From IMG/VR virus record IMGVR_UViG_3300037851_000542, positions 96,001 through 160,000 of that record: a DNA stretch of 64,000 nucleotides; one strand, given 5' to 3'. The stretch comes from a virus (lineage: Duplodnaviria; Caudoviricetes). Positions 6,006-63,999 of the stretch are shown piece after piece. Under the pieces are notes generated by a model. It did not search any database. It saw only the letters and a list, made by a program, of their open reading frames with translations, and had not been told where the DNA came from. The translations under genes were made by a program, and so were the position numbers. Every line of letters starts with the position of its first letter. Within the stretch, counting starts at the first letter, position 1.

Positions 6006-7499
6006 TTACAAACTTTGCTGTGCTAACTTTCTCTGGTTTAAAATCTCTTGCTCTCTTTTATTTTTTAGATTATAAGCATAAGAGAAAACTTGATCAAACA
6101 TTGGTACAACATTAGTGTTCCAGTTTATAGTAGATGTCACCCAATTATAGGCATTGTCTTCTATTTTAGCTTTTACCTGAGGATTATTATAAATGAAGAG
6201 CATTTTTTGTAACATATCTTCCACGTTTGGTAAAGGACGTATAACATCATTATCATTAGGAAATACACATTTTAAGGACAATGTATTTCCAGATGCATAC
6301 AGAACCCCCCTAACTTTTTCTATGTCGTTTTGATCACCGCACAGCTCGGTATGAGACGTATTAGCAGGGGCTATAACGCAGGTTTTGGTAGCAAAAGCCT
6401 GTGTTAGAGCAAATTCCCATCCACCTCCTGTAGCAGAGGTCAATAGTAAATCAGCAGTATTAAATACTTGGTTGAGTTCGGAAATAGATAGCCCGACTTG
6501 CACATTAAAATTTGGAGGAAAAATAACATCCTTGCCTATTACCAATCCAAGACTGTTACAAACTTCAGGAAGATTCCATCCGACATCTACAGGTTTCATA
6601 TTCATATACAAGAAGGTATTATCGCCTACTGCTTTCTTGAACTCTGCAAAAGCCATTAAAGTAGCAGGTAACATTTTTCTTGGTTGATTTCTATTTACGT
6701 TTAAGCACATAAATTTATCAACAAAAGCATCCCCAAACATTACTCTTCTGAATCTTCTGGACTCCTCTTTAGAGATAGGAAAGAATTCCTTTGTATTAAT
6801 ACCGTGGGGAATAGAACTTAGTTTTTTCTCTATATCTGGACAGGCTTCTATAGACAACTGTCTACCAAAATTTAAGTATGTTATCGGGAACTCTACTTTG
6901 TTTATTTGATTTAACCACGCTGCTTTTGGGATACCGTCTATAGGAAAATAAGCTACGATAGGAACGTGTCCTAATCCTCTGGAGTTTAGGATATCCTTGA
7001 TCTTGTCTATAAATCCATCGTTAGATCCTAGTATATTACCACCAATCAGGAACGGATCTTCAAACAAAAAAACAGTGTCAATTAACCTTGGATCGATTGA
7101 GCTTAATAATTGTAAAAACTTATGTTGTCCATATTGGTGAACAGGTGCGCTAGTATGCGCCTGCATAGCAGGCCACTGCTGGTAAATGCCGTTAGAAGGT
7201 GAACCTACTATTTGGTTAGGATCAAATGCATCTCCAAAGTAGTTTATACCAACCTGTCTTACTTCATATTTTCCAGCATAATTATTAAATAAATTAGTAA
7301 GTATTTCCTTCATTACCACACCAAATCCAGTAATCACTAATGGACTAGCGCCCCAGGCTAATATCTTTATGGTCTGTTTATTAGCTACAGGCTGTAACTG
7401 TACTTGTTGGTTTGTTTGCATACTTTGCCTTATTTGATTTATTTGATTTAGAGCCTGTGGTGCATTAGAAGATGTGTTTTTATATTTTTTCTTACTCAT
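6006..7499 (-). CDS. GT4 (GT-B fold) glycosyltransferase-like protein with degenerate EX7E motif
   Basis: TGFGVV N-terminal Gly loop, IPHGINT, NVNRNQPRKM and NTADLL. The EX7E region reads GGGWEFALTQA (Gly and Gln at the two Glu positions). Confidence 0.85.
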   Translation of the reverse strand: MSKKKYKNTSSNAPQALNQINQIRQSMQTNQQVQLQPVANKQTIKILAWGASPLVITGFGVVMKEILTNLFNNYAGKYEVRQVGINYFGDAFDPNQIVGSPSNGIYQQWPAMQAHTSAPVHQYGQHKFLQLLSSIDPRLIDTVFLFEDPFLIGGNILGSNDGFIDKIKDILNSRGLGHVPIVAYFPIDGIPKAAWLNQINKVEFPITYLNFGRQLSIEACPDIEKKLSSIPHGINTKEFFPISKEESRRFRRVMFGDAFVDKFMCLNVNRNQPRKMLPATLMAFAEFKKAVGDNTFLYMNMKPVDVGWNLPEVCNSLGLVIGKDVIFPPNFNVQVGLSISELNQVFNTADLLLTSATGGGWEFALTQAFATKTCVIAPANTSHTELCGDQNDIEKVRGVLYASGNTLSLKCVFPNDNDVIRPLPNVEDMLQKMLFIYNNPQVKAKIEDNAYNWVTSTINWNTNVVPMFDQVFSYAYNLKNKREQEILNQRKLAQQSL

Positions 7500-7500
7500 T

Positions 7501-8748
7501 TCACTTAACCTTTCTAGTTCTAATTTGAGGAGATTGTAATCTATATTGTGCTGATTGTTGTATTTGGGCTACTACATCAGAAGGTAAAGTAGCTAATATA
7601 TCGTCTAGTTTGCTGTTACTGACATCCACGCAATCAAGTAAAGTATTTAAATCTATATAATTGGCTAATATCTTAGCGTTATAAGTCCTATTTGAATTAC
7701 TTAATGTGTAAACTTCCTCTGTGCCATTTGTTATTTTAGAGTTATTTTCATTATCCAGGTGTATCAGAGCCCACTTAGTTAAATCTCTTTTTAACTGTTC
7801 TAGCTCTGTTATTGTATTTTTAATATCTTTATAAATACCTAAAAAAGAACTAGGGGTAACTTCTGGAATTTTAAATGTGCTTCCTACCTGTATTAAACTA
7901 TCATTATAAGTAGTACAAGAATGCTTGAACTGACACCAAGAACAGAATGTACTTAACTTTCCTTCTGGCAAGTAACCGTCTTCGCTATTTTGAATACTTT
8001 CAACAAATTTTAATAATCCATTTCTAACTGAAAACAGCTGTTGCCTAAAACTATAACGCTGAGTATCTGTTCTAGTACTAGTAACAGTTTTTTTAAGGCG
8101 TAAGTAGTTCAACTCAACCACGCGATTAGGAAACTGAGGAAACAAATAGAAGGCAGCTAAATCGTACATAGACAGCTGTTCATCTGTTCTAGCGTCCTGC
8201 CAAGACATAGCAGTATTTGATGTCTTATAATCTATAATTTTAATTGTGGTATCGTCTAACTGTACAATTTTATCAATAAAGCCATTTATTCTAACTCCTT
8301 CTGGAAACTCAATATCAAATTCTTGCTCTACTGCGATTATTTTTTCTGGAACTAAATCTGCACGTCTTCTGTCTAGTTCTTCTTTGATTAACCTTTCACC
8401 TTCTTCGAATAGAGCAACATTATGTATAATAGAGCTGTTGTCTACCACCCTAGACATGTAATCTCTAAATGCTTGATAAGCCTCTTCATAATCTGTAAGA
8501 CTGACAGGGCATCCTGTTTCCATTACCTTTCTGGCTATTACTTCAAGTCCGTGATGAACAGCGCTACCAAAGGTAAAAATTTCAGTATCTTGTCTGGGAA
8601 GCTTATCTATATAAGAGTAATAAAACTTCCTAGGGCACTCTAAAAAAGTTTTATACTTCGATGCAGACATCTTAGTATAAATGGACTTTATCTCCTCTGG
8701 AGTTTTGCCTGTCAATGGATTGGGTCTTAGAGCTATATTATTATTCAT
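7501..8748 (-). CDS. PD-(D/E)XK nuclease, RecB/AddB/Cas4-like, probable Fe-S cluster
   Basis: SASKYKTFLECP, GSAVH, GFIDKI, IIDYKTS, QLSMY and C-terminal CSWCQFKHSC. Confidence 0.9.
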   Translation of the reverse strand: MNNNIALRPNPLTGKTPEEIKSIYTKMSASKYKTFLECPRKFYYSYIDKLPRQDTEIFTFGSAVHHGLEVIARKVMETGCPVSLTDYEEAYQAFRDYMSRVVDNSSIIHNVALFEEGERLIKEELDRRRADLVPEKIIAVEQEFDIEFPEGVRINGFIDKIVQLDDTTIKIIDYKTSNTAMSWQDARTDEQLSMYDLAAFYLFPQFPNRVVELNYLRLKKTVTSTRTDTQRYSFRQQLFSVRNGLLKFVESIQNSEDGYLPEGKLSTFCSWCQFKHSCTTYNDSLIQVGSTFKIPEVTPSSFLGIYKDIKNTITELEQLKRDLTKWALIHLDNENNSKITNGTEEVYTLSNSNRTYNAKILANYIDLNTLLDCVDVSNSKLDDILATLPSDVVAQIQQSAQYRLQSPQIRTRKVK

Positions 8749-8749
8749 A

Positions 8750-11149: not shown

Positions 11150-11159
11150 GACAATCTAG

Positions 11160-18717: not shown

Positions 18718-18730
18718 TGGGTTAATTTAC

Positions 18731-19966
18731 CTACCTAATACCTATGTTCTTAGCACCAGATACTGCTAAGCCTACTCTTTTCAGTCTGAGGTCTACCCCA
18801 CCTGACGTAAAAGTAGAGGTGATTGTATTTGTTTGTAAATCTAGCTGTTGTATCACTCCACTAAAAGTGTTTAAATCATATGTTGAAAAGAATAAAGTAC
18901 CGGATGTAAATGTAGAACCTGTAGTCACTTCTATACTAGCTATATCTAATGATGAGCCTGATATAGTTTCTAATTGAAAAGTCTTCACACTGCTTAATGA
19001 TATGTTGCTCCTGTTTTCATCCATTACACTTATTCCGGAATTGGTAGCCATAATTATTAAATAACTACTGCTGGTTGGAATAACTTCTAAATCGTTAATT
19101 GTATTTCCTGATATACTTGGAGTGGAGGTATTATTTATAAAATAATCTGGAGAAGTCCAGTTGCCAGAAGGAGTGTACTTAACGTATAAACCGCTTCCTG
19201 TTGGAGAGTAATAAACATCTCCTTCATTATTTAATTTAAGAGAAGTATTTCCTATCGCTGATCCATACTGAGTATAGCTCCTGATTTGAGTATCGCCTGT
19301 AATGAAATCCACTCCTGAAATAGATCCTAATGCTAAATCATTACTATAATTTTTACTAACTTTGTTTATATTGTTAGAAAGGATATTTGGAACTTGCCTA
19401 AAAGTAACTAGTGAAGATGCTGATATAGCAGCCGGACTTTCTGATGTAAAGTCATATAAATAAATCCCACTATTAGGTACAGATAGATAAACAGTTTGAT
19501 CTCCGCATATCTCCCTACAGACGCCAACATCAAGCAAGCCACCGGAGATTTTTAAATAACTTCTACTGGTTATACTATTACTATCAATAATATCTAATCC
19601 ATTGTCGGTTATTATAAACGCATCACAAGGTGTAGTAATAAGCCCACTCACTGTCCAGGATGTTTTCAACGGTGTATCAAAAAAGTCAATAGATTCAGTA
19701 GGTGTAATATAAGCTTTAGGTTTTACATATAAATCTATATTATCTAAATACCTTTCTAAAGTCCTTGTATAACCTACATAACCAGAAAGACTAGGGTAGT
19801 AAATTATTAAACTGTCTGTGCCGCTTACTGTAGGACAATTCCAAGTACCACTACTTGATGTAATACCTGACGCTAACGCACCGGAAGTTACAGTACCGAG
19901 TATTATAACATTTACTCCAGATACTGGAACATCGTTTAAATAGTTTAATACTTTACCACTAACCAT
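18731..19966 (-). CDS. Ser/Gly-rich structural protein, N-terminal beta-sandwich plus beta-propeller-like region
   Basis: 411 aa, beta-rich; repeated 'vyLs...sGly' blade-like segments; 20 of 36 Gly preceded by Ser. Confidence 0.6.
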   Translation of the reverse strand: MVSGKVLNYLNDVPVSGVNVIILGTVTSGALASGITSSSGTWNCPTVSGTDSLIIYYPSLSGYVGYTRTLERYLDNIDLYVKPKAYITPTESIDFFDTPLKTSWTVSGLITTPCDAFIITDNGLDIIDSNSITSRSYLKISGGLLDVGVCREICGDQTVYLSVPNSGIYLYDFTSESPAAISASSLVTFRQVPNILSNNINKVSKNYSNDLALGSISGVDFITGDTQIRSYTQYGSAIGNTSLKLNNEGDVYYSPTGSGLYVKYTPSGNWTSPDYFINNTSTPSISGNTINDLEVIPTSSSYLIIMATNSGISVMDENRSNISLSSVKTFQLETISGSSLDIASIEVTTGSTFTSGTLFFSTYDLNTFSGVIQQLDLQTNTITSTFTSGGVDLRLKRVGLAVSGAKNIGIR

Positions 19967-21860
19967 TCTTTCTAACGCCTATCCAGTTAATACGCGGTCC
20001 TTTGAAGTCTTCTGCTGATATCATTACAGCTATGCGCTCAGGGGCATTTAATAATGGACTTGATGAGTCTGTGTATGTCATTAGGCTTACAAAATTTGGA
20101 TAAATTGACAACGGGCTATCAAATGTAACACCAGAAATATCTGCATCACCTCGCAGTACTTCAAATTCTACTAAATTACTGTTTGAATTACTTTTCCATC
20201 TAAACTCTAACCAGACTGGATATTCATAAGCTCCAACTGTAACATTTGAACTAGTGACTAAAGTAGATATAGTAGTTGGGAAGGTGTGCTTATAAAGCCT
20301 AGTAACAAGTGTAGTAGATCCAAAAGAGTGTATTGTAAATTTATAACAACTATTATTTGTTATCGACCCTGTTCTATTAATTACAAGTTCAAACTGCTTT
20401 CTGTCTGGTGTGTCTGCACCAGAGCCGAAATTAGATAAATTTCTAAATAATACTCTTACTGCACCGTGTGTTACATTTTCTGAATTTTTAATATAGTATC
20501 TTAATTGCCTAAATTTTGAAGGTCCAGTAATACTGGCTTGACCTAAAAATCCTTTAACAGGAACATTAAAATAGTCTTTAGAAGAATTATTTAAAAAGTT
20601 ATAATGTCGAATTATAGGATTAGAAATGGCACTATCCCAAAGAGGTTGAAATAAGTTTCCTTCTATAGATCCTGATGCAGTATAACTTCCAACATTAGGG
20701 TTTATAATAGCTGCAAAAGTTGTAAAATCAGTATTTAAATCTAAATGAGAGGCGTTTGCTATGTTGCTATTATCATATACAATTTGATTAGAGTGTAATC
20801 CACTTGTTGGTTTAACTTCACTAAACTTTTCAAGACTTATGTTGTCAATTAAAGTAGCGTCACTAGATAGGTTATCATCTACTAATATGAAACTTGGTTT
20901 AAATGAATTATTAAAACTATTCCAATTAGAGGTGCCAGATGGGGTATAAATGGCACTTTGAATAATTTGATACGCTTTATTTTTAAATGTATCTAAAGTA
21001 TCCCCACTTTCATAAGGTTTTGAGTATAAAGTAGTAACAACTACTGGCAGCCCAACGTCAGTATCTCTATATTCCCAATCTAACCCCCACCATCTCAGTG
21101 CTTGGTCCGAGGCAGTGGTGGAATTAGTATATATCAACCTGAGAGAATCGTTAGTAAAAGCATTACTAAATTGTAGAGGTACGCCAGAATAAGCTTGATA
21201 GTAAGGTTGCTTTACAAAGTCTACACTGTGCCTATTAGAGTTATTTCTTTTAATTCTAATTGCATAGGTGTTTAGATCGATGTCTTGTGCAAATGCAAAT
21301 AACAACGCCGATGTATTGTTTGCAGTTAAGGGTACTCTATGAAGCCAAGACGCTCTACCTATTTTAATACCAGAAGCTCCTGCAACATTAGTCTCTACGT
21401 AAAGCCTAGCCTCAGAAGTACCGCTAACTCCTAATGAAAAAGATCCTAGGAGCCCTGGTGTAAGCCTGCCTGATGAACTAATAGAGCCCAGACCAGATAT
21501 GGTAAAGTTATTTAATGAGTCTGCGGTTTCAAAATTAATATTATTTAAAAGTGTTTCCCCAGTAATATTTAAATCAAAACCGGAAGGTGTAGGCAGTTGA
21601 AAGTCCATTGTCAAAAGATCGTTAGTGTTATCTTTTGTGTAATTAAATGCTGTTGAAGTAAAATTATTAGCAGCTGGAATTAACTTTAAATTATTTGAAA
21701 AAGAAAATGCATCATCGCTTATTGAATTTATACTTAACAACCCGCTTGTTATGGTATAAGGTCCTTGAAACAAGTTATTGTTATCTATGTAAACTGTGCC
21801 TGATCCGATAACAGGATACTGTCCACTTAGTGTGCTTGAAAAGTTAAATAATGGTGACAT
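19959..21860 (-). CDS. Hypothetical beta-rich structural protein
   Basis: 633-aa Ser/Thr/Asn-rich ORF coupled to its neighbours; about 15 SG dipeptides. Confidence 0.6.
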   Translation of the reverse strand: MSPLFNFSSTLSGQYPVIGSGTVYIDNNNLFQGPYTITSGLLSINSISDDAFSFSNNLKLIPAANNFTSTAFNYTKDNTNDLLTMDFQLPTPSGFDLNITGETLLNNINFETADSLNNFTISGLGSISSSGRLTPGLLGSFSLGVSGTSEARLYVETNVAGASGIKIGRASWLHRVPLTANNTSALLFAFAQDIDLNTYAIRIKRNNSNRHSVDFVKQPYYQAYSGVPLQFSNAFTNDSLRLIYTNSTTASDQALRWWGLDWEYRDTDVGLPVVVTTLYSKPYESGDTLDTFKNKAYQIIQSAIYTPSGTSNWNSFNNSFKPSFILVDDNLSSDATLIDNISLEKFSEVKPTSGLHSNQIVYDNSNIANASHLDLNTDFTTFAAIINPNVGSYTASGSIEGNLFQPLWDSAISNPIIRHYNFLNNSSKDYFNVPVKGFLGQASITGPSKFRQLRYYIKNSENVTHGAVRVLFRNLSNFGSGADTPDRKQFELVINRTGSITNNSCYKFTIHSFGSTTLVTRLYKHTFPTTISTLVTSSNVTVGAYEYPVWLEFRWKSNSNSNLVEFEVLRGDADISGVTFDSPLSIYPNFVSLMTYTDSSSPLLNAPERIAVMISAEDFKGPRINWIGVRKNG

Positions 21861-42552: not shown

Positions 42553-43329
42553 TTATCCTTTTATATCCAAATTAAAAACTGTTATGTTTGCATTACTGCC
42601 TGAAGTACGCCTCACTTGAAGGTCGAGTAATACACCTGAAGAGGGAAAGTTACCACCGCTAATTGTAAATGGAACTAGCAAATTGGCAGTAGAAGCTCCG
42701 GAAAAAAAGGCTGTGGTTGCCAGTTCTGTATTTGTAGTTAAGTTAAAAAGACGAGCTTGACCTGATGTAGTTATAGAAGCAGTTCTAAAGACACCAGAGA
42801 CAGAAAGAACAGGTCCAAAGGAATTAGTACCCTCAAACGGAAATATTGCAGTTGACGTGTAGGTAGTAGAGTTGTTCGTAACACCCTTAGCAAAATTATA
42901 GGATAATTGCTTAGGTTTCGCCTTAGTATCTACATAACTCTTATTACTAGCGTGCCCACTTAGTGTAGGATTATCATTTAAGGTTAAAAATCCGCTCATC
43001 GCATCACCTGACGTATTTACAAACCTAGATTCAGCAAATCCTGAGTAGGACGTTAATGAGCTGTCAGTGGATAAAGGTACTGTAGTTAATTCACCAGTTT
43101 TGACGGAAACTGTGTCACCTGATGCTGTTAAATAAACAATAGAGTCATCTGGTTGCCTTAAGGGTATGGATCCTAAAGGGTGCCTATTACCGGATACTGT
43201 TTGAAAAGACTCATCGGCTAGTTGCTCAATAGCAGTATGCGTGGGGTTGTTAGTTAAATAGGCATCTAACTCATCTTTTAAAAGATACTTATCAACCTGA
43301 GGTATATAATAAATCCATTTTTTTATCAT
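42553..43329 (-). CDS. Fibre-like virion protein, short paralogue
   Basis: SGDAMSGFLTLNDNPTLSGHASNKSYVD, matching the common phage fibre motif GDTMTG.L...P....A.K.YVD; N- and C-termini paralogous to 43353-44939. Confidence 0.7.
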   Translation of the reverse strand: MIKKWIYYIPQVDKYLLKDELDAYLTNNPTHTAIEQLADESFQTVSGNRHPLGSIPLRQPDDSIVYLTASGDTVSVKTGELTTVPLSTDSSLTSYSGFAESRFVNTSGDAMSGFLTLNDNPTLSGHASNKSYVDTKAKPKQLSYNFAKGVTNNSTTYTSTAIFPFEGTNSFGPVLSVSGVFRTASITTSGQARLFNLTTNTELATTAFFSGASTANLLVPFTISGGNFPSSGVLLDLQVRRTSGSNANITVFNLDIKG

Positions 43330-43352
43330 AAATCTAGTATAGTATTTTATGG

Positions 43353-44939
43353 TTAAAAATTAGATCCTAGGATTGATAATCCGTGTATAATCATATTGCC
43401 GTTACCTGAGTTTCTTCTTAACTCCACTCTAAATACTGCCGAACCGCTTGGTAAAGCACTGCCACCGGAAGTACTAAGTGAAAATAATCCAGGAGAAGTT
43501 CCACTAAAAGTTCCGGAAGCTACTGTTGTATTATTACTTAAATTATAAACACGCGCCTGCCCTACAGATCCAGCACTAGCAACACTAAAAACGCCTTCAA
43601 AGAAGTTAACTGGACCCATTCTCAAAGTTCCAGGAAAGGAGATATAGGAAACAGTTTGATACGAGGTACTGTTTATTTGGATTCCTACGTTTCCATTATC
43701 AGCATAGGAGTAAGATAGTACTCTGTAACCGCCTGTAGCTGTTAAACTTAAAACCTGAGAAGGTAAATTTCCAGTATAAGTAGCGAACGTAGTATCACTT
43801 ACTAACCCTGTAGTAGTAATATTAACATTGTTGCCGACACCGCTAGATGACTGCAGTCCAAAGCCTAAATTTATATTACCAACATTATTATGATTTAAAC
43901 TACCACTATTACTTACATCCAAAACTCCACTATTTAAAATATTAACTTGATTTTGAAAATACCCAGAGATAGAAGAGTCTCTTTGATCTACATAAAATTT
44001 ATTAGACGAGTGTCCAGATAACGTTGGGTCAGCGTTTAAAGTTAGGAATCCAGTCATCGAATCGCCAGAGGTATTTACAAACCGCCCTTCAGCAAATCCA
44101 GAGTATGTGGTGACGGAATTTGTAGTGAAAATACTAGCTGTAGTTACCGCATTGCCCGAGATAACGGCAACCTCCGATATATCAATAAATTTTCCTTCTG
44201 CAAATCCTGAATATGCAGTTAGATTAGCAAAAGTAGCCATTCCTGTTACCGATACCTCTAACTCGTTACCAGTACCGGAAGAAGCTAGTAATCCAAAACC
44301 TAAATCAATAGATTGAACTGTGCTTAGTACTAGCGTATTTTGATTTTTTCCAGTAATAGGTATAGAGACTTTAGAATCGACGTACTGTTTTGTTGCAGCG
44401 TGTCCAGATGTAACAGGGTCTGAAAATAAAGTAAGGAAACCGGTCATTAAATCACCGGATCTTAATACTCTATTATTTATATCTAACTGTAAGTTTCCTG
44501 ACGTGGTATTTATTAAACTAGTATTGCTTGCAGTTAATCCTGAAACTGTATTAATATCATAGTGTATTTGACTTAAATCTGCAGATACGGTAGTTAAATA
44601 GTTTTCTATATTTACTATGTCTGCTGCTACACCAGATGTTAAAAAACTGATATCATTGTTTATATCTAGTACTTCATTAAAAAAATAACCAGATACTGCC
44701 ATAATTGCAGCATCAATAGTAGCAAATCCTGACAGAGACGTGCTTGCGCCGCTAAGACTTATAAGAGCATTTATAGAGGTGCCCTCTGCGTTCCCTGCTT
44801 GCTCGTAATAACCGCTGGTAATTAAAACAGGTATTGCAACGTAACTAGGATTGTCCGTAAAGTATTGTAACTCTTCGTCTAATATAAATCTGCGGAGCTG
44901 CGGACTCCACCACTGTTGTAATATATCTACCATTTGCAA
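43353..44939 (-). CDS. Fibre-like virion protein, long paralogue
   Basis: Two copies of SGD.MTGFLTL..DP..SGH..K.YVD; coiled-coil-like N-terminal third; 24 SG dipeptides. Confidence 0.7.
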   Translation of the reverse strand: MQMVDILQQWWSPQLRRFILDEELQYFTDNPSYVAIPVLITSGYYEQAGNAEGTSINALISLSGASTSLSGFATIDAAIMAVSGYFFNEVLDINNDISFLTSGVAADIVNIENYLTTVSADLSQIHYDINTVSGLTASNTSLINTTSGNLQLDINNRVLRSGDLMTGFLTLFSDPVTSGHAATKQYVDSKVSIPITGKNQNTLVLSTVQSIDLGFGLLASSGTGNELEVSVTGMATFANLTAYSGFAEGKFIDISEVAVISGNAVTTASIFTTNSVTTYSGFAEGRFVNTSGDSMTGFLTLNADPTLSGHSSNKFYVDQRDSSISGYFQNQVNILNSGVLDVSNSGSLNHNNVGNINLGFGLQSSSGVGNNVNITTTGLVSDTTFATYTGNLPSQVLSLTATGGYRVLSYSYADNGNVGIQINSTSYQTVSYISFPGTLRMGPVNFFEGVFSVASAGSVGQARVYNLSNNTTVASGTFSGTSPGLFSLSTSGGSALPSGSAVFRVELRRNSGNGNMIIHGLSILGSNF

Positions 44940-44954
44940 AAACTAGCAAAGAAA

Positions 44955-45596
44955 TTATAAACGTTTTAATCTTTCTATTCTTAGGTAACCAGATAACAAA
45001 GTAAATGTTATATTTGCTGAGCTATCGGTTGATAAATCTCTAGATCTTATACCTACAGTTTCGTTTATAGAATTCGTGGAAATAATATAGCAACCTTCAG
45101 AAGTCCCCACTGGGGCGGTTCTAACACTTGTAGCCACTCCTGCTGTTTGTGTCGCCGCAACAAATGTTCCTGAATTTCTATTTAAATCCGTTACTAAGTT
45201 ACGACTTCTGGTTGCGAAAGTGGATCCTGTTATTTCTCCAGTTACTTGCCAATTTATTTTATAAATCCCAATGTTTACAAGTGTAACATTATTTGAGTCT
45301 ACTGTAAAGCCCGATCCATTGCTTAATACAGACCCTGTATTTAAATTTAAAAGATTGTTGGTTGTAATTAAATCTGTACCGGCAGTAAACTCAACCTGTA
45401 CTAAATTAGGAGTATTAATTGTAATAGCCATATCCTCTACAGCAGAGAATACATCAGTCCCAGAAACACCAATATTTGTAAAGTCAGATCCCGAAGTTGT
45501 TATAGGTACTAAACTTGCATCTAAAGCAGTCTCGTTAAAGTTACTAGAAGAGACCCTAGGTACTAGTAATGTTCCATTTGAAAATGTTATAGGCAT
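44955..45596 (-). CDS. Fibre/spike protein with BclA-C/C1q-like C-terminal domain
   Basis: VTLVNIGIYKINWQV jelly-roll-like pattern; Thr/Ser-rich. Confidence 0.45.
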   Translation of the reverse strand: MPITFSNGTLLVPRVSSSNFNETALDASLVPITTSGSDFTNIGVSGTDVFSAVEDMAITINTPNLVQVEFTAGTDLITTNNLLNLNTGSVLSNGSGFTVDSNNVTLVNIGIYKINWQVTGEITGSTFATRSRNLVTDLNRNSGTFVAATQTAGVATSVRTAPVGTSEGCYIISTNSINETVGIRSRDLSTDSSANITFTLLSGYLRIERLKRL

Positions 45597-46578: not shown

Positions 46579-47493
46579 ATGGCAATTAATGAAACCACAC
46601 AGGACGCTATTAATAATCCTGGAAATACAAAAACCGTAACACTAGATTTAACTAAGCAAGTTTATGCTGACAGTGAAGGTGATGAACAGTATGCTTTAAC
46701 TCTATCTACTACGGCTACTAGTAAAATAACTGCTGGTAGTATTGCTAATACCTACATAAGAGATGTAAAAGTAGGCTACTCTAAGAGTAGAAAAATAGCC
46801 GGACCTTTTAATATAGATGGTACCAAAAACCAACTTAGAGTTAGTATAGACGGATCTACCTCTAGAACGATTACATTAACCTCTGGTACAGGACTCACAC
46901 CTAATGACATAGTGAATGACCTTCAGGCACAGATATCTTCACTAGCAGGGACTGGTGGACTGGAAGAGGGTAACTTAGGGTTTCTTAATGCTGATGTAGA
47001 GTTTGTTGAAGGTAGATTTAGGATTCTCTCAGGCTCTGTTTCAGATACTTTTACTGGCATAGCTAAGTCAAGCGTTTCAGTTTTATCAGGAGTAGCTAAC
47101 GACGCTACAAGTTATTTAGGGTTTAATATCCCCATTCAAAGTGAGGATTTGGCTTCAAAGTCTTCTGCGGAAACTATAGTAGTTTCCGGCTTTACTGCTA
47201 GCGGTACTACCTTGGCGCTAGAAAGTGTTATTGGATGTAATAGTGGAGAAGCTTTTACAATAACAGACGGAGTATCCAGAGAGTATTTTATTGCTACTGC
47301 TGTCACTAGTGGAAACTCTACTTTAACGGTGGCTTCTGGTACAATTAATAACAACTATGCAATTAATTCTGTTGTTCAAAAGATATTTGAAAGAGACCCA
47401 GATTCCTCAGTACCTAACCCTCTAACTACAGTAGATGAGATTATGAGGTTTAGCTTAAAGAATGTGGTTAACCAAATAGATTATACCACTTAA
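46579..47493 (+). CDS. Structural protein with a domain resembling contractile-tail-sheath insertion domains
   Basis: NQLRVSIDG...ITLT...DIVNDLQAQI...FRILSG...LGF; upstream GAGGT (46565-46569) Shine-Dalgarno-like site. Confidence 0.55.
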   Translation: MAINETTQDAINNPGNTKTVTLDLTKQVYADSEGDEQYALTLSTTATSKITAGSIANTYIRDVKVGYSKSRKIAGPFNIDGTKNQLRVSIDGSTSRTITLTSGTGLTPNDIVNDLQAQISSLAGTGGLEEGNLGFLNADVEFVEGRFRILSGSVSDTFTGIAKSSVSVLSGVANDATSYLGFNIPIQSEDLASKSSAETIVVSGFTASGTTLALESVIGCNSGEAFTITDGVSREYFIATAVTSGNSTLTVASGTINNNYAINSVVQKIFERDPDSSVPNPLTTVDEIMRFSLKNVVNQIDYTT

Positions 47494-49211: not shown

Positions 49212-49232
49212 AAATAGACCTTTGTAAAGATT

Positions 49233-49261
49233 TTGACAATTAAATTTTAATCAGCTACAAT
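49233..49261 (+). promoter_or_regulatory. sigma70-type promoter
   Basis: TTGACA (49233-49238), 17-bp spacer, TACAAT (49256-49261), upstream of the FAD oxidoreductase. Confidence 0.75.
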
Positions 49262-49286
49262 TAATTATATACAATTAATTAATTAA

Positions 49287-56585: not shown

Positions 56586-56612
56586 TTGTTATGTACCTCT
56601 ATCTGCTCAAAA

Positions 56613-56897: not shown

Positions 56898-56949
56898 ACA
56901 GGCTGTCCTCTTTAGGTTATAATAATACTATAACTGTAAAATAGTACAA

Positions 56950-58998
56950 CTAGCCATTATTATCTTCTGATTCTATAGTAAAGCTCCAACTAAATTCTAA
57001 TTTATTACCCGCAAAATCTTGTGCTTCTAGTACTAAGTTCATAGTCTTTCCATATTCAAAGAATGGATTATTAGACTCTATATAGCCTGATAATGTCATA
57101 GAATTAAATCCTTCTCCTACTATTTCTGCACTTAAGTCATAATTTGGAAAAGGTACAGTATATAAATTTGTAGAATAGTTTGAATATTTAGGTATACAGG
57201 ATCGATTTGTAGTTAAAAAATCTACATCTATAATACTTTCATATGGTAATTTAACTCCTGATACACATACTTCATATCCCCACAGTAATTCTCTGCTAAA
57301 ATTTCTAAATACAAACTCAGTTCTTGGTGTGTAAGTTGCATTTAAATCTATTAAATCTTTTGAACTTGTGATGCTTGCTATTAAATCTAGTAGAAATATA
57401 TTAGGTATAATTTCCGCTGTCAAATCGTAATTACCTCCTGGTTCAAGTCCAACAATTTGAGCATTTAAATCAAACTGAGATCCTAGTGGTAGTTCTAATC
57501 CTTCTGCCTGTATATAAAAATTTAGCAAGGTGGACATTTCATAATCTGGATTTAATTGAAAATAAACCCTATAATAGGAATCTGATCCTGATATTGGTAC
57601 AAAAGTACTTGGTATAATTTGCCCATTCTTTATAACTCTTGATTCTGGTCTAGCTATTCCAGTTCCTGAGGTGTTTATATAGTCTACAAAGAATTGGGTT
57701 GGGGTTTCTGAGTTATATAAATCTGCCACATCAAAGGGTATAAAGTTATCTTCTGAGAATATGTGTAATCCTGATACTACTAAATATGAGTTAACTTCTG
57801 TTGTAAAATTAAATGACCCCGAAAATGTATTTGATGGATTAAATAGGTCTCCTACACTTATGTCAACATTTACTAATTGACCAAATTCTAAAAACGCATT
57901 GGGTTTTATAATAACCTCTAGTTCTCTGTTATCAGGTGAGCTGTTAAACTCATAAGTAGCATATGTTGTGTTTAAGTCTAGTCCAGATACTACAACTTCT
58001 GAATCTACACTTATTTTTAGAGTATTTATATCTATTCCTGTATGATCATCTTTAATATTAAAAACTATGTTAGTATTTACGTTATTACCTGTTGATAGGT
58101 TTACAGGGTAGGTATCTACTATATAAGGTGCATTTATATCTGGTGCGCCCGAAATAATTACAAGTAAGTCCTCTGTATCCCACACACCATAACTATAAAA
58201 GAATGATCCACTGTTACTTAAAACATCTATTGCACTTCCTGATACAATTACCTCTGAACCAAAAGGAAATCCACTCGGATTAGTGTATAAAAAATCAAAC
58301 TCCCTTAAACTTACCTGAGTTAAAAAAGTATTTGGATGAATAATATTCCCATTTTGTATAAACTGTGTACTATTAATGAAAATATTTATAGAGGAAGTTG
58401 TTATACTTGTTGTAGCATTGTCCTGTATTCTGAAGTACAAGTCCTGAAAAGGATCATTCATAAAAGATCCAGATATAGGGCTTGTATTGATTATAGCAGG
58501 AGGTAAGTCGTCTATTTGAGTAAGCTGACCTGTTGTAGTAATAGAATTTGGCGCGGTGAGTGTAAAGCTAACAGCTTCTCTTATTTTTGAACTTACTGGA
58601 CCGTTGTACTCTAATAAATTAGGACTATTAAGGGCTACTACACTGTAAGCATAAAGTAAATCTAATGTGGTTTTAGTAACCTTCTCTTCTTCTAAGCTTA
58701 TTAAAAAAGATCCTTGTACTAAATCTGGGCTTTGAAGATTAAGTATATTACTTGATACTTTTTCGGAACCTATAAATAAGGTTTGGTCAGTTACTACATC
58801 ATTTAAGGTCAATAAAGAAAAAAGATTATTATTTGTAGTTTTATTTATTACATTAAGTGTAGTAGTTGAGTTTATATTAACATCCTCTAAAGTAAACTGA
58901 GAATTATTTACCTCACTTTTGGGACTTACACCGCAAGATATAAAAGACCTTACTAAAGGAAACCCAATACTAAACTGGGTAGAAGTTACAATCGGCAT
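56950..58998 (-). CDS. Structural protein with Big_5-like Ig domains and DLxAxI repeats
   Basis: PAIINTSP..., PYIVDTYP...IKDDHTGIDINTL; DLNAQIVG, DLTAEIIP, DLIASITS and DLSAEIVG. Confidence 0.65.
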   Translation of the reverse strand: MPIVTSTQFSIGFPLVRSFISCGVSPKSEVNNSQFTLEDVNINSTTTLNVINKTTNNNLFSLLTLNDVVTDQTLFIGSEKVSSNILNLQSPDLVQGSFLISLEEEKVTKTTLDLLYAYSVVALNSPNLLEYNGPVSSKIREAVSFTLTAPNSITTTGQLTQIDDLPPAIINTSPISGSFMNDPFQDLYFRIQDNATTSITTSSINIFINSTQFIQNGNIIHPNTFLTQVSLREFDFLYTNPSGFPFGSEVIVSGSAIDVLSNSGSFFYSYGVWDTEDLLVIISGAPDINAPYIVDTYPVNLSTGNNVNTNIVFNIKDDHTGIDINTLKISVDSEVVVSGLDLNTTYATYEFNSSPDNRELEVIIKPNAFLEFGQLVNVDISVGDLFNPSNTFSGSFNFTTEVNSYLVVSGLHIFSEDNFIPFDVADLYNSETPTQFFVDYINTSGTGIARPESRVIKNGQIIPSTFVPISGSDSYYRVYFQLNPDYEMSTLLNFYIQAEGLELPLGSQFDLNAQIVGLEPGGNYDLTAEIIPNIFLLDLIASITSSKDLIDLNATYTPRTEFVFRNFSRELLWGYEVCVSGVKLPYESIIDVDFLTTNRSCIPKYSNYSTNLYTVPFPNYDLSAEIVGEGFNSMTLSGYIESNNPFFEYGKTMNLVLEAQDFAGNKLEFSWSFTIESEDNNG

Positions 58999-59000
58999 AA

Positions 59001-61280
59001 CTAGTTAGATATTGTACCACGAATGGTAACATTACCAGGTGTAGTACCTACTGAGTAAGTAGTTTGAGATATACCACTAGTGTTTGTATTTGAATTAGCA
59101 GGGTTTATAACTCCATCCCCAAGAGTTATGTCATAGTTAACTGTTATAGCGTTAAGAGGATCCCCCCAAGCACTTATAACTTCAGTTACGACAGTAGAGG
59201 TTTCGGATGTACCTGCTCTAAGGCTAGTATCTAGTAAATTTAATCCTGCAAAAGCTGGTACAGTTTTATCTATACTGTAACTACCTATTCTAAAATTATT
59301 ACCAGATTGGGAAGCTATATATAAAGTGTTATGATCATTGCCGTGCAGGTAAAAAGAACACTTTTCTCCTTTTTCACTCAAGATTACTGATTTGCTATTC
59401 CAAGAAGGAACATCAAGAAAAAGTTGCCTAGTAGATATTGAAGGACTTGATCCTGTTATGGTTAGTGTACCTACTTGAATTTCATTTATGATATCCGAGT
59501 AATCTAAAAACTGTAAGAATCCTCCAAATGTTCTATTAAAACATAAGTCTTGAATAGATCCCGTAAAGAGTCCAGATGATGGATAAATATTTGCATAAGG
59601 GGCAGTATATGTACCTGAAGAAGGAAAAGCATTACCACTTATTGGTATTTTATAAATATCACTATGTATTTTTATATAAGCATTAAATGATTCATCTACT
59701 GCTAAATTAGAGTTTTTACCTACAAGTGTTAGTGCAGAATCTACTATAAAAACTCCTGTATCAGTATACACATCAGACGTAACTTTATATCCTAGATTGT
59801 TTATAATTGTACTTGTGTTTCTAGCTTTAAAATCTATTTCATTAATTTTTATACCTGAAAATCCTATTGCCGGAACATCAGTAGAGAAAGCAATATCTAA
59901 AGCTCCTGTTTGCTGAACTTGTAAACTAAAGTTAGAAAAATATACTGGAGTTGGAAAGAAAGTTCCACTAGGATTGGCTATGTAATAAACATCAGGGTGT
60001 AAGGTAAAATACTTAGATCCGCTTGTTACTGCGTCTGCAAAGTTATATTCAATATTAAAACCACTACTGCCGCTTACTGTTAAATGCGTACCACTAGTAG
60101 TTGTAATCTCTAAATTGCCTTGTCCAGATGTTACTGGTGTAGTTTGATAATAAACTTGAAAATTTAATGGTACTCCTGATCCTGCCGCCGAAAAAAATCT
60201 AGGCTCACTTATATATGTAAATAAGTCATCTACATTGTAGGGTCTTCTAATACCACTAGGACTTAATACTAATCCTGTATTAGTTTTTGAATAGTTTGTA
60301 GAACCTTCATTATGGTATAATATTAGACTTTCTACATAATTTGTATTATCTATGCCTGATATTGTAATATCGATCCAGCCTGTACTAGTTACATCTTTAT
60401 AAAGATTGCTTATAGGTGCTCCTACTCCACTAACTGTATTATGCAAACTAGTAAATCTTAAATCAAAATTATTAAAATAACCAATTCCACCGCCACTTAC
60501 AATAGGACGAGAATTATTAAAATATCCCCCTGAAACTGCCATAGACACTAAATAAGTACCGCTTGTGTTAGTAACAACACCTTCTCTATAAGTTAACGAA
60601 TTGTTTATTGAAGGTTCAGTGCTCCTCTCAGACAAGAAGAGTCCATAGATAGAACTACTAGGAGTAGGAATAGCGCTATAATCTATTGAAGCGGAGCGAT
60701 CATACGTAGAGGGGACTGCTCCGGAAGTTCTAATAATTGCTAGATCCAAACCGTTAGCTGCTGAAACACCGGGAACAGTTTGCGTATTAAAAAAGGTAGG
60801 CGCTCCACTAAAATTAATCCTGCCAAGACTGCTATCAAGGTTGAATACTCCAAATCCTAAAAAAGCAGAATTATTTTGATAAATGCCCCATATAGATTTA
60901 AAACTGTTAAAACCTGATGTAACAAGTGGTTGATTAAAGTCTGGTAAATAAGTACTATTAAATCTTAAATCTTTAATAAAATCATCGTAATAACTACCGT
61001 CTCTGTAAAAGATATCAGTGTCGCTGAAAGTACTAACAAAACTTGCTGAATATAACTTATTGTTCAACTTATCATAAGCTATATCAAACAAGTAAGGTTC
61101 AGATTTAATATAACTTGCTGCGGATAAACCGTTTGTTTGAAAATAGAATAAATTACCGCTAAGTGCTATTAAATTAGCACCTGTGTGTATTACTTTTTTA
61201 GCATTAGTTAATTTGAGATAATTACTATCACCACTAATAGTTGTATCTATAGGTAAAATATCCCCTGGAAGTAATACCAT
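59001..61280 (-). CDS. Structural protein with C-terminal Big_1 (invasin-type Ig-like) domain
   Basis: C-terminal SLRAG...WGDPL...GDG..NP..SNTNTSG..TTY; paralogous ends to 61280-62380. Confidence 0.65.
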   Translation of the reverse strand: MVLLPGDILPIDTTISGDSNYLKLTNAKKVIHTGANLIALSGNLFYFQTNGLSAASYIKSEPYLFDIAYDKLNNKLYSASFVSTFSDTDIFYRDGSYYDDFIKDLRFNSTYLPDFNQPLVTSGFNSFKSIWGIYQNNSAFLGFGVFNLDSSLGRINFSGAPTFFNTQTVPGVSAANGLDLAIIRTSGAVPSTYDRSASIDYSAIPTPSSSIYGLFLSERSTEPSINNSLTYREGVVTNTSGTYLVSMAVSGGYFNNSRPIVSGGGIGYFNNFDLRFTSLHNTVSGVGAPISNLYKDVTSTGWIDITISGIDNTNYVESLILYHNEGSTNYSKTNTGLVLSPSGIRRPYNVDDLFTYISEPRFFSAAGSGVPLNFQVYYQTTPVTSGQGNLEITTTSGTHLTVSGSSGFNIEYNFADAVTSGSKYFTLHPDVYYIANPSGTFFPTPVYFSNFSLQVQQTGALDIAFSTDVPAIGFSGIKINEIDFKARNTSTIINNLGYKVTSDVYTDTGVFIVDSALTLVGKNSNLAVDESFNAYIKIHSDIYKIPISGNAFPSSGTYTAPYANIYPSSGLFTGSIQDLCFNRTFGGFLQFLDYSDIINEIQVGTLTITGSSPSISTRQLFLDVPSWNSKSVILSEKGEKCSFYLHGNDHNTLYIASQSGNNFRIGSYSIDKTVPAFAGLNLLDTSLRAGTSETSTVVTEVISAWGDPLNAITVNYDITLGDGVINPANSNTNTSGISQTTYSVGTTPGNVTIRGTISN

Positions 61281-62380
61281 TAATCAGATACCTCTATTTG
61301 AATTTGCACAGGACCTGCGACAGTACCTGCAGTGTATAAAGATGTTGCTATTCCACTTATATTAGTATTAACGACTAGTGGGTTTAGTACACCATCTCCT
61401 TGTGTTATTAGGAAATTTACTTGTTTATTATTTAAAGGTTCTCCCCATACATTTATGGCACTAGCGTATACATTGGAAGATGCTCCTGTTCCTGCTCTGA
61501 GACTTACATCCTCTAAATTGACGGCGGCAAAACCGGTAGATAACGAATCAACGTTATAACTGGACAGCACTGATCTATTTATTCCGGTATCTGTAGTTAC
61601 GAGATATAATGTATTATGGTCAAGCTCGTTATAAAAAAAGGATGAGTCGGAAGTACCGCTCATTGAGGACCGGTTAGATGTTGAAGCAGGTGCTAAAAAC
61701 AATTGCCTGTCTTTGTAGGTAGGCGAGTTTCCAGAAGTTACTGCCCAGGTCTCCAGTATAACTTCATCTACCGAAGGTTTATATTCAAAAAGCCCTATAA
61801 AGTGTGAATCTTTTCTACTATAAATTAAAGAACCTGCTGACTGATTAATGCCACTAGTTAGTAGGTTTATGTTTAAATCTGACTCAGTATACCCAGATAC
61901 GGACGGAAAAAGAGATCCGGAGGCTGGCAGGTCGTAGATCCCTTGATCTACACGCAGGTATACCTTGGCATAATCTGTTACTACTAGTTCCACTCTAGGT
62001 AGTATACTAGAAAAGTTAGAAGTTAAACCAGATATTACATTTAAATAGTTAAGTACATTGGTTACTACTACTCCTGCTGCAGTTACTTGTTCTACTATTA
62101 CTCCAATAATATTAGAACCACTTGTAGCCGCCCGTGCGGTGTAATACTTATTGTTATTAAAAGCCACGTCAAAAATATAATCATTAGCTGCTATATAGGC
62201 AGCTGTTTGTACACCATTTGTCTGGTAATAATAAAAACTAGGATTTAAGCTAGAAGATAGATCAGCTACAAGATAGTTACTGCCGTCGTGCAGAACTCTC
62301 TTTGCAGTAGTAGGTTTTAAATCTCCGGATGGAAAAGTTACCCCAGTACTTAATGGAATTACGTCGCCTTGAATTAACAT
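61280..62380 (-). CDS. Structural protein, short paralogue of 59001-61280, with Big_1 domain
   Basis: N-terminal L.QGDVIP...AKRVLH and C-terminal SLRAG...WGEPL...GDG.LNP..NTNISG. Confidence 0.65.
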   Translation of the reverse strand: MLIQGDVIPLSTGVTFPSGDLKPTTAKRVLHDGSNYLVADLSSSLNPSFYYYQTNGVQTAAYIAANDYIFDVAFNNNKYYTARAATSGSNIIGVIVEQVTAAGVVVTNVLNYLNVISGLTSNFSSILPRVELVVTDYAKVYLRVDQGIYDLPASGSLFPSVSGYTESDLNINLLTSGINQSAGSLIYSRKDSHFIGLFEYKPSVDEVILETWAVTSGNSPTYKDRQLFLAPASTSNRSSMSGTSDSSFFYNELDHNTLYLVTTDTGINRSVLSSYNVDSLSTGFAAVNLEDVSLRAGTGASSNVYASAINVWGEPLNNKQVNFLITQGDGVLNPLVVNTNISGIATSLYTAGTVAGPVQIQIEVSD

Positions 62381-63999
62381 TATTTTGTTCTATACACCTT
62401 TGGCTTTAATACAAAAAACGTATCTTTTCCATTTAATGAAAATGTAGATTTATCAATTTTAATTCCATTTTCTTGACCTAGAGCTGTTAAGCATATAGAT
62501 GAGTCAATAGGGACTAATACTTGACATTCCTTAGGATACTTATTAATAAATAGTACGTCAGACCCCTCAGAGGTTCTGAAGTCCCATACAGTGTTTAATA
62601 GGTTTCCTGCATAATCTGCTACTCTTAAATTTATATCTATATCCTTATCATTTAAATATTTACACTTAGTATTATAAACTATCTGATAAGTCTTATTTCC
62701 TAGACTTATAATTTCGGGGACGACCTTAATACCCTCAACATACATTTCTAAAGAATTAAAATCTATATCTGTTTGATTGTCCTGTATTATAGCATAAATT
62801 ACCGTATCTTGACTATTAGCTAGTGAGTTATTTGCTGGAAACACCTCTATAAGTACTGGCGCAATAAAATCATCTACTATTCCAAATGTATACTCTGTTG
62901 TAACAGTGTTAGGAGGTCCGTCAGTGTCTTGTATTTCTATGTATACTGATACTGTAGACCCATACTCAAAATCAACTGTAGGGTTATATACAAGCTCCAG
63001 ACCACCTCCAAAAGGAGTGATCGATAGTTGGTCTGTTATATCAATACCATTTACTTTAAAAACTAAAGTATTAGTATTTAAAGGTATATTTCCTATGCCT
63101 ATAATTCTTACTAGAATATTAGTATCTACTGGGTTTTTTATGCTAAAGGGCTTTGGAAGAGCAAATAGCAAATAAATATACTGATTTAAAGTTATTTCTT
63201 CTATTAATGGAGGCTTCTGATCTATAAATGACTTTTCAACTATTGTAGCAGTCTGATTAATAAAAGTCTTACTTAAATAAGTATACTGGTCAATAAAGGT
63301 GCTAAATTGTATAGACTGTACCTGATCAATAAATGTAACAGTAGATAAATCACTAGATTGCACTAGTTCAAGGTCTGATGTTAATGTTTTTTGCTCCAAC
63401 GGCGCTTTGGAAATAAGATCCCCTTTTTGCTCAATATAATTAGAATTATCTATAAATGCTAACTGCTCTACTGGAAATTTAAAGGGTATTTGAGATAATA
63501 CATCCCTAACTGTAATAGAAACCAGATCAGATACTAAGGGTATTCCTGAGTTATAACTGGTGATACCTTGTCCTGATGTGTTTGTAGTTATGGTAGTAAG
63601 ACCTGCTGTAATAAAGCCATAAATATTGTCATCAGATACAGTTAAGTTCCTTAAAAATACGGGTATATTATATTGGTCTAATGCCGTAACTATAAAGTTA
63701 CATGACTTGTTATCTCCTAACAAAACAGAGTTTGTTGTCCGGTCTACAGATATGGATTTAAAATTAGGCGCTAAAAACTCTTCTTCTATCTGATACCTGC
63801 TATTAGCCCCGACTTCATCCACAAATTGATCAGCTAAAGTATTAAAACTAGTTTTTTCTGTCTGAAGCTTTTGAACTGAGATATTTGAAATGATCATATC
63901 ATACACTTTGATAATATCATTTTTATTAGATTTTATATTATTCAGCAACAGGCTATTATTAAATCCAATGTTGGCACCTATGGGTTTATATTGATATAA
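62380..63999 (-). CDS. Ig-domain structural protein, 5'-partial (frame open to the right edge)
   Basis: The frame of the listed 63948 start stays stop-free to 63999. It contains a Big_1-like segment, [FYL]I[DEN]Q repeats and Big_5-like domains. Confidence 0.7.
   Translation of the reverse strand, partial: LYQYKPIGANIGFNNSLLLNNIKSNKNDIIKVYDMIISNISVQKLQTEKTSFNTLADQFVDEVGANSRYQIEEEFLAPNFKSISVDRTTNSVLLGDNKSCNFIVTALDQYNIPVFLRNLTVSDDNIYGFITAGLTTITTNTSGQGITSYNSGIPLVSDLVSITVRDVLSQIPFKFPVEQLAFIDNSNYIEQKGDLISKAPLEQKTLTSDLELVQSSDLSTVTFIDQVQSIQFSTFIDQYTYLSKTFINQTATIVEKSFIDQKPPLIEEITLNQYIYLLFALPKPFSIKNPVDTNILVRIIGIGNIPLNTNTLVFKVNGIDITDQLSITPFGGGLELVYNPTVDFEYGSTVSVYIEIQDTDGPPNTVTTEYTFGIVDDFIAPVLIEVFPANNSLANSQDTVIYAIIQDNQTDIDFNSLEMYVEGIKVVPEIISLGNKTYQIVYNTKCKYLNDKDIDINLRVADYAGNLLNTVWDFRTSEGSDVLFINKYPKECQVLVPIDSSICLTALGQENGIKIDKSTFSLNGKDTFFVLKPKVYRTK

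Follow-up and report, generated by a model that had tools for sequence, protein, structure and literature searches.

The subjects of this report are an excess of the dipeptide Ser-Gly (SG) in putative structural proteins and a pair of glycosyltransferase (GT) genes, both encoded in a window of 64,000 nucleotides of viral DNA that corresponds to positions 48932-112931, read on the minus strand, of an IMG/VR virus record of 140 kb (G000). The first-pass annotation of the window had joined the two, proposing that many virion proteins may be O-glycosylated at the Ser of [T/V/I]-S-G by a GtfA/GtfB-like pair, which would build a dense glycan coat. Our results suggest instead that these are probably two separate things, SG being a turn motif, and the GTs, a GT4 enzyme (P0001) and a paralogue that has lost both Glu of the EX7E motif (P0002), being an active/impaired heterodimer of the GT-B fold; a glycan coat on SG sites appears quite unlikely. 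Because one protein of the contig is also found on a contig of 259,994 bp, the window would be a fragment of an uncultured jumbo phage, and the record is rated as ~47% complete, with ~33% G+C. Its open reading frames (ORFs) are long and tightly packed under translation table 11, on which ground stop-codon recoding was rejected, and neither a tRNA nor an Rfam family was found.

No dipeptide of the whole 140-kb contig is more over-represented than SG, which occurs 404 times against 256 expected (z 9.2), and the reverse dipeptide, GS, reaches only 1.1 times its expectation. Every one of the six Ser codons and of the four Gly codons contributes to the excess, which places the signal at the protein level and led us to reject an origin in the DNA or in codon choice. 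A local richness in Ser and Gly was likewise rejected as the cause, given that GS is not enriched and that shuffling within proteins never reached the observed SG. In the 15 ORFs of the window that we regard as structural, a label given from fold, composition and position only, 190 SG were counted against 81 expected, a value attained in 0 of 1000 within-protein shuffles, whereas the 16 ORFs of the replication module hold 12 against 16 expected, so that the contrast drawn in the first-pass annotation between SG-rich structural proteins and SG-poor replication enzymes holds numerically. By family, no virion protein was identified in the window, except for the weak tail-fibre PHROG matches of a 528-aa ORF at 43353-44939. 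Eight proteins of the contig are SG-rich at Poisson p<0.01, six of these at p<0.001. An excess of this size, restricted to proteins that are beta-rich and probably structural, is in itself what a glycan coat would lead one to expect. The residue preceding SG is mostly T, V or I (also S), and the one following it T, S or V. In proteoglycans, the xylosylation sequon is an SG with acidic flanks, and no acidic enrichment was found around SG in this contig. Among the x-Gly dipeptides of the whole contig, NG (0.91) and DG (0.87) are slightly depleted, compared to 1.58 for SG, 1.25 for TG and 1.23 for AG. Such depletion may reflect avoidance of turns prone to deamidation or isomerisation in long-lived particles, and we infer that Ser may stand in for the chemically labile, deamidation-prone N-G and D-G turns.

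The most informative protein with regard to the role of SG is the 411-aa product of the top SG ORF. Its AlphaFold2 model is all-beta with a mean predicted local distance difference test (pLDDT) of 86, and Foldseek matched it to beta-propellers, namely the BT4663 two-component-regulator propeller (Reg_prop), WD40 proteins and designed eight-bladed propellers. When SG positions were placed on the secondary structure assigned by DSSP, the conserved ones were found to close loops of 2-4 residues, directly before the next strand, and the end of a short hairpin loop is a classic site for a small polar residue and Gly. An exhaustive profile search yielded 58 homologues of this protein, nearly all of them 2.5-5 times enriched in SG; in an alignment of 29 of these, two pairs, S258-G259 and S310-G311, do not vary at all, and S166, S217 and S403 are almost invariant. 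A distant homologue of its repeat occurs in a bacterial cadherin/Big_9 protein of 2605 aa with 61 SG against 25 expected, and an SG-rich bacterial adhesin homologue, like the location of SG in conserved structural turns, speaks against a phage glycosylation sequon. SG would therewith be a structural turn motif of fast-evolving all-beta folds (beta-propeller, fibres and Ig-like proteins), closing tight beta-hairpins in which a strand is followed by 2-4 residues ending in S-G and then by the next strand.

A ...DPT[LV]SGH..A.K.YVD motif is common to the fibre ORFs, which also share a beta domain at the C-terminus, and the SG of PT[LV]SGH is invariant in seven paralogues and orthologues. Weak Ig-like signals (Big_1/Big_5) were seen in the proteins of 682, 759 and 366 aa; in a word search of 5.8 billion proteins, the 759-aa protein found no homologue but itself, and Atlas searches with it and with the 633-aa protein gave weak leads only. 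Throughout, SG sites are scattered through folded beta proteins, and are not arranged in long Ser-rich repeats. The invariance of several SG Ser could be taken as a sign of modification, but in the seven alignable orthologue pairs between this phage and G001, a relative of the same clade, the Ser of SG is conserved in 33% of cases against 29% for other Ser, and the Gly of SG in 61% against 61%. In G001, moreover, syntenic proteins that can no longer be aligned are still SG-rich (11 against 3.3 and 10 against 3.2), a persistence that would also suit a coat.

The first-pass annotation had named beforehand a comparison of SG enrichment across relatives with and without the GTs, and its outcome argues against a sequon. 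The same ORF caller and test were applied to every genome, SG observed/expected being summed over proteins, and SG-rich proteins being those of at least 200 aa that pass Poisson p<0.01. The contig itself, with its GT4 pair, has a ratio of 1.51 (8 of 77 proteins SG-rich), and relatives with the same GTs fall below it: 1.34 in G001, which carries a third GT as well, 1.34 in G007, which has the pair (5 of 130), and 1.19 in G008, which has a full glycan island (3 of 148). The cultured phages with a P0002-like GT range from 1.34 in S-EIVl (5 of 41) and 1.23 in S-CBS4 (1 of 32), both Synechococcus phages, to 1.10 in TJE1 (0 of 30), and cultured Kenrey, with a P0001-like GT, has 1.26 (1 of 45). In the 70-120 kb part of T4, where only DNA GTs are present, the ratio is 1.15 (0 of 33), and in the complete genome G006, devoid of GT1, GT2 or GT4 matches, it is 1.03 (0 of 137). 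The jumbo phage G005 (89% complete), on the other hand, has no GT4 and no GT resembling chlorovirus B736L, only one GT2-family match, and reaches 1.40 with 7 of 184 proteins, among them a fibre-like protein of 2722 aa with 103 SG against 53 expected. Strong SG in G005, taken together with weak or absent SG in several carriers of the pair, gives no support for tying SG to the GTs; the excess in GT carriers, from none in TJE1 to moderate, is not what a sequon would predict, nor is a ratio of only 1.19 where the island is full. Strong SG enrichment rather characterizes certain repetitive beta proteins found in big phages.

Three SG-rich proteins are also found on G002, a 17%-complete fragment of another big phage where no GT was found. 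On that fragment (L055-L060), the ORFs at 11594-13591, 17385-19103 and 22366-23790 owe their SG to proline-free, collagen-like S-G-T triplet repeats. Among the 775 proteins encoded within 10 kb on either side of 80 P0002-like GTs, none reaches p<0.001, and the overall ratios of 1.24 for SG and 0.96 for GS set the general baseline. As an observation on the cultured phages, the hypothetical protein of S-EIVl that spans the record origin (KJ410740, 78221..731) has, in its two ORF halves jointly, 25 SG against ~7.5, and its 601-aa neighbour (768-2573) has 14 against 6.5; both lie upstream of a lysozyme gene, and the P0002-like GT of this phage lies near a primase gene. More generally, a striking dipeptide excess can arise because repetitive beta folds prefer certain residues in their turns, and it should be compared with phages lacking GTs before being read as a sequon.

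With regard to the GTs, the description given by the first-pass annotation was accurate. In P0001, the EX7E motif is intact (EGWNLPLVE), and its two Glu, E265 and E273, do not vary among 28 homologues; K163, R167 and K168 are likewise invariant. The gene sits between ClpP and the SG-rich fibre cluster, divergently transcribed from ClpP, and this order recurs in two clade relatives; such a neighbourhood, in this phage and both relatives, is a point in favor of virion proteins as acceptors. P0002 had been said to have lost both Glu, and it does read GGGWEFALTQ in place of EX7E, with its NVNRNQPRK motif retained. Both Glu are replaced (G...Q) in 13 of 13 clade orthologues, in which R270, N271, R274 and K275 are invariant. 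In terms of GT4/GT-B membership, P0001 thus shows EX7E and the basic residues, and P0002 departs from this feature through the lost Glu. More distant P0002 homologues retain GEGWGL...E, and in one of them, P0074, an intein of ~370 aa (residues ~313-680), which carries Pfam domains of homing endonucleases, separates the two Glu exactly, at GEGWGL/C...HN/SSVEAMA (the slashes marking its boundaries), a location which marks EX7E as functionally central in the wider family; P0115 is a second intein-bearing homologue. The Lys/Gln-rich extensions at residues 1-43 and 470-497 of P0002 are present only in the jumbo-phage orthologues, and not in the wider family.

P0002 has no Pfam match by itself, and P0001 found no match in the PDB by phmmer. 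The P0002 family profile aligns over its full length with PDB 3oy2, chlorovirus NY-2A B736L (E 7.8e-27), with other GT4 structures far behind and Gtf1 (4pqg) marginal (E 0.0077). Using hhalign, P0001 aligned to the P0002 family with 98% probability, which makes P0001 and P0002 distant paralogues. Their orthologues are found together on the same large contigs, and at 53% and 54% identity to those of G001, compared to 39% for DNA polymerase A (PolA) and 37% for DnaB, both GTs are, by sequence identity, among the best-conserved genes of the clade. P0002 would be a GT paralogue that appears inactivated and yet is strongly conserved.

Prediction of a complex between P0001 and P0002 gave a score of 0.68, with 0.00 for the best of three controls and a partner pLDDT of at least 85; 58 of 80 solved complexes and 2 of 110 mismatched pairs attained the same mark, although these counts are rough as our own alignments were used. 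Agreement between the runs was at least 0% of contacts; it was 100% for runs 2 and 3, and run 1 scored 0.08. The predicted interface is formed by equivalent C-domain segments of the two paralogues, residues 218-235 of P0001 facing residues 249-260 and 322-341 of P0002. An active GT-B paired with one lacking EX7E is therefore supported in silico, and P0001 and P0002 would form an active/impaired heterodimer that uses a nucleoside diphosphate (NDP)-sugar made by the host. The prediction would serve a glycan coat equally, with the same reservations on paralogy and on the discordant run. As for the GtfA/GtfB-like pair of the first-pass annotation, the combination of an active GT4 with a paralogue lacking EX7E and the complex score are in its favor, while DUF1975, a serine-rich-repeat substrate and gene proximity, the two genes being 33 kb apart, are all missing.

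Several points weigh against our preferred interpretation. Some SG Ser are invariant, in 29 of 29 sequences, which is beyond the need of a plain turn residue; turn tips can be surface-exposed, and the predicted structure may thus be compatible with modification; and just one SG-rich protein, that of 411 aa, was modelled well, not the fibres or the proteins of 633, 682 and 759 aa. The complete, GT-less G006 has no SG excess, and most of the GT-bearing phages sampled have some, so a weak association may exist; few truly GT-less complete genomes are in the sample, which bears on any such association, and G006 is the sole control of this kind to which a glycan coat can appeal. Only about half of the phage genome is covered by the record. 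Regarding the GTs, the heterodimer score may only echo the solved GT-B dimers, homodimers included, as the two chains are paralogues and one of three runs disagreed, and loss of the EX7E Glu is no proof of loss of activity in P0002.

The acceptor of the pair is a separate matter. Our first guess would be a phage protein, most plausibly of the virion, by analogy with chloroviruses, mimiviruses and mycobacteriophages, since known virus-encoded clusters of multiple GT and amino-sugar genes serve virion glycosylation (PMC9614988, PMC4691112) and since phage GTs do glycosylate virions in mycobacteriophages, as cited in PMC11256854. No result points to SG as the mark of the glycosylated site. It has to be considered that the strand-turn-strand shape around [T/V/I]-S-G could itself be recognized, in the manner proposed for AAH/TibC, in which case the heterodimer would be a protein O-glycosyltransferase, a phage counterpart of GtfA/GtfB, propeller, fibre and Ig-like virion proteins would be sugar-coated, and the glycan island described below would serve a large group of uncultured phages as a general toolkit for virion glycans; we rate this as improbable. 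A precedent is given by the AAH/TibC autotransporter heptosyltransferases (BAHT), which act on repetitive beta proteins and O-glycosylate Ser within a structural motif of strand, short loop and strand. Neither a BAHT-type enzyme nor DUF1975 was found, the search with BAHT TIGR04414 giving no match in G000, G001, G002, G005, G006, G007 or G008, with limited power given that controls barely matched, and in most of the loci inspected the gene of the 6006 type lies in the replication module.

That module, at 771-14692 of the window, comprises PolA, a short-chain dehydrogenase/reductase (SDR, P0003), a patatin, the P0002 gene, a PDDEXK exonuclease, RuvC, primase, DnaB and UvsX. Starting from P0002 alone, the search for related loci found no match, and a family alignment was required; a pattern scan with the invariant NxNRNQxR motif then gave at least 300 relatives in IMG/VR. 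Homologues of DnaB, exonuclease, UvsX, primase, RuvC and a 263-aa protein each lie within 10 kb of the GT in 43-53 of the 80 best P0002-type loci, and the order UvsX-DnaB-primase-RuvC-exonuclease-GT-GT...PolA recurs in the majority of the 45 loci listed, where the tandem's second GT is the most P0001-like one (21-26% identity). Between the GTs and PolA lies an island of variable content. In G008, a complete genome of 295,848 bp (L094:9941-20407), the GT pair is followed by a GT2-family gene, a 4,6-dehydratase-type SDR, a DegT aminotransferase, a PglD-like acetyltransferase, an ORF without match, a second GT2-family gene and a canonical SDR, with no GT1-family match in this genome beyond the pair; other relatives, including L116 and L093, have different sets with GT2-family, GT47-like and ADP-ribosylglycohydrolase genes. 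Further sugar genes are thus present at this place in three annotated relatives, namely GT2-family transferases and dehydratases, joined in one of them by an aminotransferase and an acetyltransferase. In the cultured Tetrasphaera phage TJE1, the P0002-like GT shares a gene cluster with a nucleotidyltransferase, an epimerase and a methyltransferase. The island of our phage is reduced to the EX7E-less GT, a 105-aa ORF, the patatin, two small ORFs and the SDR beside PolA; the adjacent EX7E-intact GT of G001 and L003 is absent from the 140-kb fragment, and the intact GT4 sits 33 kb away, beside the fibre genes.

P0003 retains GGNGFIG (GxxGxxG), and its description as degenerate by the first-pass annotation was correct, as it reads YSGCLA where YxxxK is expected and has lost the catalytic Lys. 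Two clade orthologues read Y-x4-K, and the PolA-adjacent SDRs of the wider relatives keep YGISK. Its proposed role as a third subunit of the GT complex is not supported. A conserved, basic, helical C-terminal extension of ~100 aa (residues ~320-426; pattern ...YIKVRR.EVA..MAI.QI.SE...KR.EKRLL...VAG..F.KI.YG.FQ.R...) is absent from ordinary nucleotide-sugar epimerases.

An island of this kind, and its position, could be explained in two further ways. The GTs, and the larger island of the relatives, might modify host envelope glycans or lipid-linked intermediates (lipopolysaccharide, teichoic acid, capsule), for example for superinfection exclusion, with no virion role, and although possible we see this as unlikely. 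GT4 enzymes such as WaaG and PimA commonly use lipid-linked or membrane acceptors; the island content (GT2-family, GT47-like, dehydratase, DegT and PglD-like genes) varies as in surface-glycan loci; the PHROGs category of the P0002 family is "moron, auxiliary metabolic gene and host takeover"; and location in the replication module would suggest expression ahead of virion genes. No priming phosphoglycosyltransferase, flippase or polymerase, however, was seen in the annotated islands, and core genes conserved above PolA, one homologue of which carries an intein in its active-site motif, would be unusual as accessory host-modifying genes. Alternatively, the GTs might glycosylate phage DNA, like the alpha- and beta-glucosyltransferases of T4, which would explain why the gene of the 6006 type lies in the replication module, between exonuclease and PolA in most loci inspected; T4 a-gt, phage G gp306 and RB69 ORF003c do match B736L (PMC6024577). 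DNA glycosylation is nonetheless disfavoured, and we consider it very unlikely. No thymidylate-synthase-type hydroxymethylase (PF00303) was found in our ~47%-complete fragment, G001, G007 (96% complete), TJE1, S-CBS4 or S-EIVl, with one ThyA-type match in G008, and islands with 4-6 GTs and amino-sugar genes exceed what would be needed, there being to our knowledge no described DNA sugar modification that requires them. A search for TET/JBP gave no match and was uninformative, as control genomes gave none either.

The features of the window discussed above are collected in the table, together with their neighbors.

Table. Position, strand and distinguishing properties of features in the 64,000-nucleotide window (SG counts are observed vs expected)
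Feature	Position	Strand	Details
DNA polymerase A, distal island boundary	771..3020	-	phrog_17 2.7e-92
P0003, 426-aa SDR (NAD-dependent epimerase/dehydratase), directly upstream of PolA	3021..4301	-	PF01370 5.5e-18
Patatin-like phospholipase within reduced island	4783..5586	-	PF01734 1.8e-22; same position in relative L003
P0002, 497-aa GT-B paralogue	6006..7499	-	phrog_2170 7.9e-31
PDDEXK/Cas4-like exonuclease, proximal island boundary	7501..8748	-	phrog_69 5e-34; followed by RuvC, primase, DnaB, UvsX
411-aa beta-propeller protein, top SG ORF	18731..19966	-	20 SG vs 5.3
633-aa SG-rich protein	19959..21860	-	15 SG vs 5.0; no Pfam or PHROG match
ClpP-type protease, divergent neighbour of GT4	39442..40041	-	CLP_protease 2.9e-67; phrog_94 head maturation protease 1.7e-40
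P0001, 380-aa GT4	40097..41239	+	Pfam Glycos_transf_1 PF00534 1.9e-12, above cut-off
159-aa gene directly downstream of GT4	41255..41734	+	44% identical orthologue beside GT4 in G001
Fibre cluster, three ORFs	42553..45596	-	258 aa (42553-43329; 12 SG vs 2.3), 528 aa (43353-44939; 24 vs 7.7), 213 aa (5 vs 2.0)
304-aa moderately SG-rich protein	46579..47493	+	8 SG vs 3.1; G001 orthologue 47% identical (7 vs 3.3)
Three SG-rich beta-rich ORFs	56950..62380	-	682 aa (12 SG vs 4.2), 759 aa (59001-61280; 24 vs 8.6), 366 aa (9 vs 3.4)

Further annotated genes encode PhoH, the ClpP-type protease, a trypsin-like protease, an FAD (flavin adenine dinucleotide) oxidoreductase and an HNH endonuclease. The regions 48420-50423 and 21860-24694 hold cargo that is unusual for a phage, namely a trypsin-family serine protease (Pfam 5.7e-42), a DAO-family FAD-dependent oxidoreductase (7.7e-41) and a 944-aa Kelch protein. 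The latter is the exception among the large ORFs of the window, most of which, including the SG-rich ones and the giant ORFs of 2411 aa (24694-31929) and 1790 aa (32316-37688), have no family match; the two giant ORFs have no PHROG match either and are 30-36% conserved in G001, and a third, of 2542 aa (C1:32682-40310), lies outside the window. The 159-aa protein next to P0001 is possibly Ig-like, a lead that comes from Atlas cluster matches to Big_5/Big_7 with scores of ~0.8 and template modelling (TM) scores of 0.4-0.5. A 628-aa gene similar to HNH/homing endonucleases (53065-54951; phrog_3339, 8.6e-107) adjoins a conserved Gly-rich protein of 511 aa. This protein may be the capsid protein; it is not enriched in SG (7 vs 6.0), and its AlphaFold2 model, from an alignment of four sequences, was unusable (pLDDT 37). 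A sigma-28-like motif, TAAA-N17-CGATA, has 0 copies in the window, with a spacing that may be mis-specified.

Whatever the acceptor, a glycan island of variable content is conserved inside the replication module of these phages, and an apparently inactivated yet strongly conserved GT paralogue provides a concrete lead that can be tested. Should phage proteins prove to be the acceptors of the pair, uncultured jumbo phages would, as a large group, possess glycosylation machinery of their own, and virion glycosylation would extend well past the actinobacteriophages and the giant viruses of algae and amoebae. This would bear on how receptors are recognized, on the stability of the particle and on its recognition by immune systems.

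Among known systems, the closest to the P0002 family are NY-2A B736L and PBCV-1 A546L of the chloroviruses (PDB 3OY2/3OY7), which are likewise virus-encoded soluble GT-B enzymes, with homology over the full-length profile. B736L and P0002 share a TGFG/SGYG motif in the N-terminal part and a helix in the C-terminal part; B736L, unlike P0002, keeps EX7E, and the phage genes come as a pair in an island of the replication module. B736L binds guanosine diphosphate (GDP)-mannose, and its acceptor is not known (PMC9614988). Since T4 a-gt, phage G gp306 and RB69 ORF003c, an arabinosyltransferase candidate, all match B736L equally well by HHpred (PMC6024577, Table 3), the fold does not reveal what is glycosylated.

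The phage pair would resemble GtfA/GtfB (Gtf1/Gtf2) of the streptococcal serine-rich-repeat adhesins in that a catalytic GT4 and a non-catalytic GT-B paralogue are predicted to form a heterocomplex. It differs in the distance between the genes and in a predicted interface that is pseudo-homodimer-like; the beta-meander insertion of GtfA, DUF1975, has no Pfam match in P0001 or P0002, and no SecA2/SecY2-type gene is present among the annotated ORFs of the window, nor is a serine-rich-repeat substrate. Judging from these sequences, the pair is not a member of the GtfA/GtfB or BAHT family.

Mycobacteriophages offer a likeness at the level of purpose, as they encode GTs that could, as here, decorate virion proteins; for Che8 and Rita, phage GTs and glycans on the major capsid proteins are on record as cited in PMC11256854, whereas in our case the capsid candidate shows no SG enrichment. 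The amino-sugar clusters of Mimivirus and the Megavirinae (PMC9614988, PMC4691112) are far richer than the locus of our phage, which retains only two GTs and a degenerate SDR; the block found in G008, in contrast, follows the same enzyme logic that in these giant viruses serves the virion fibrils.

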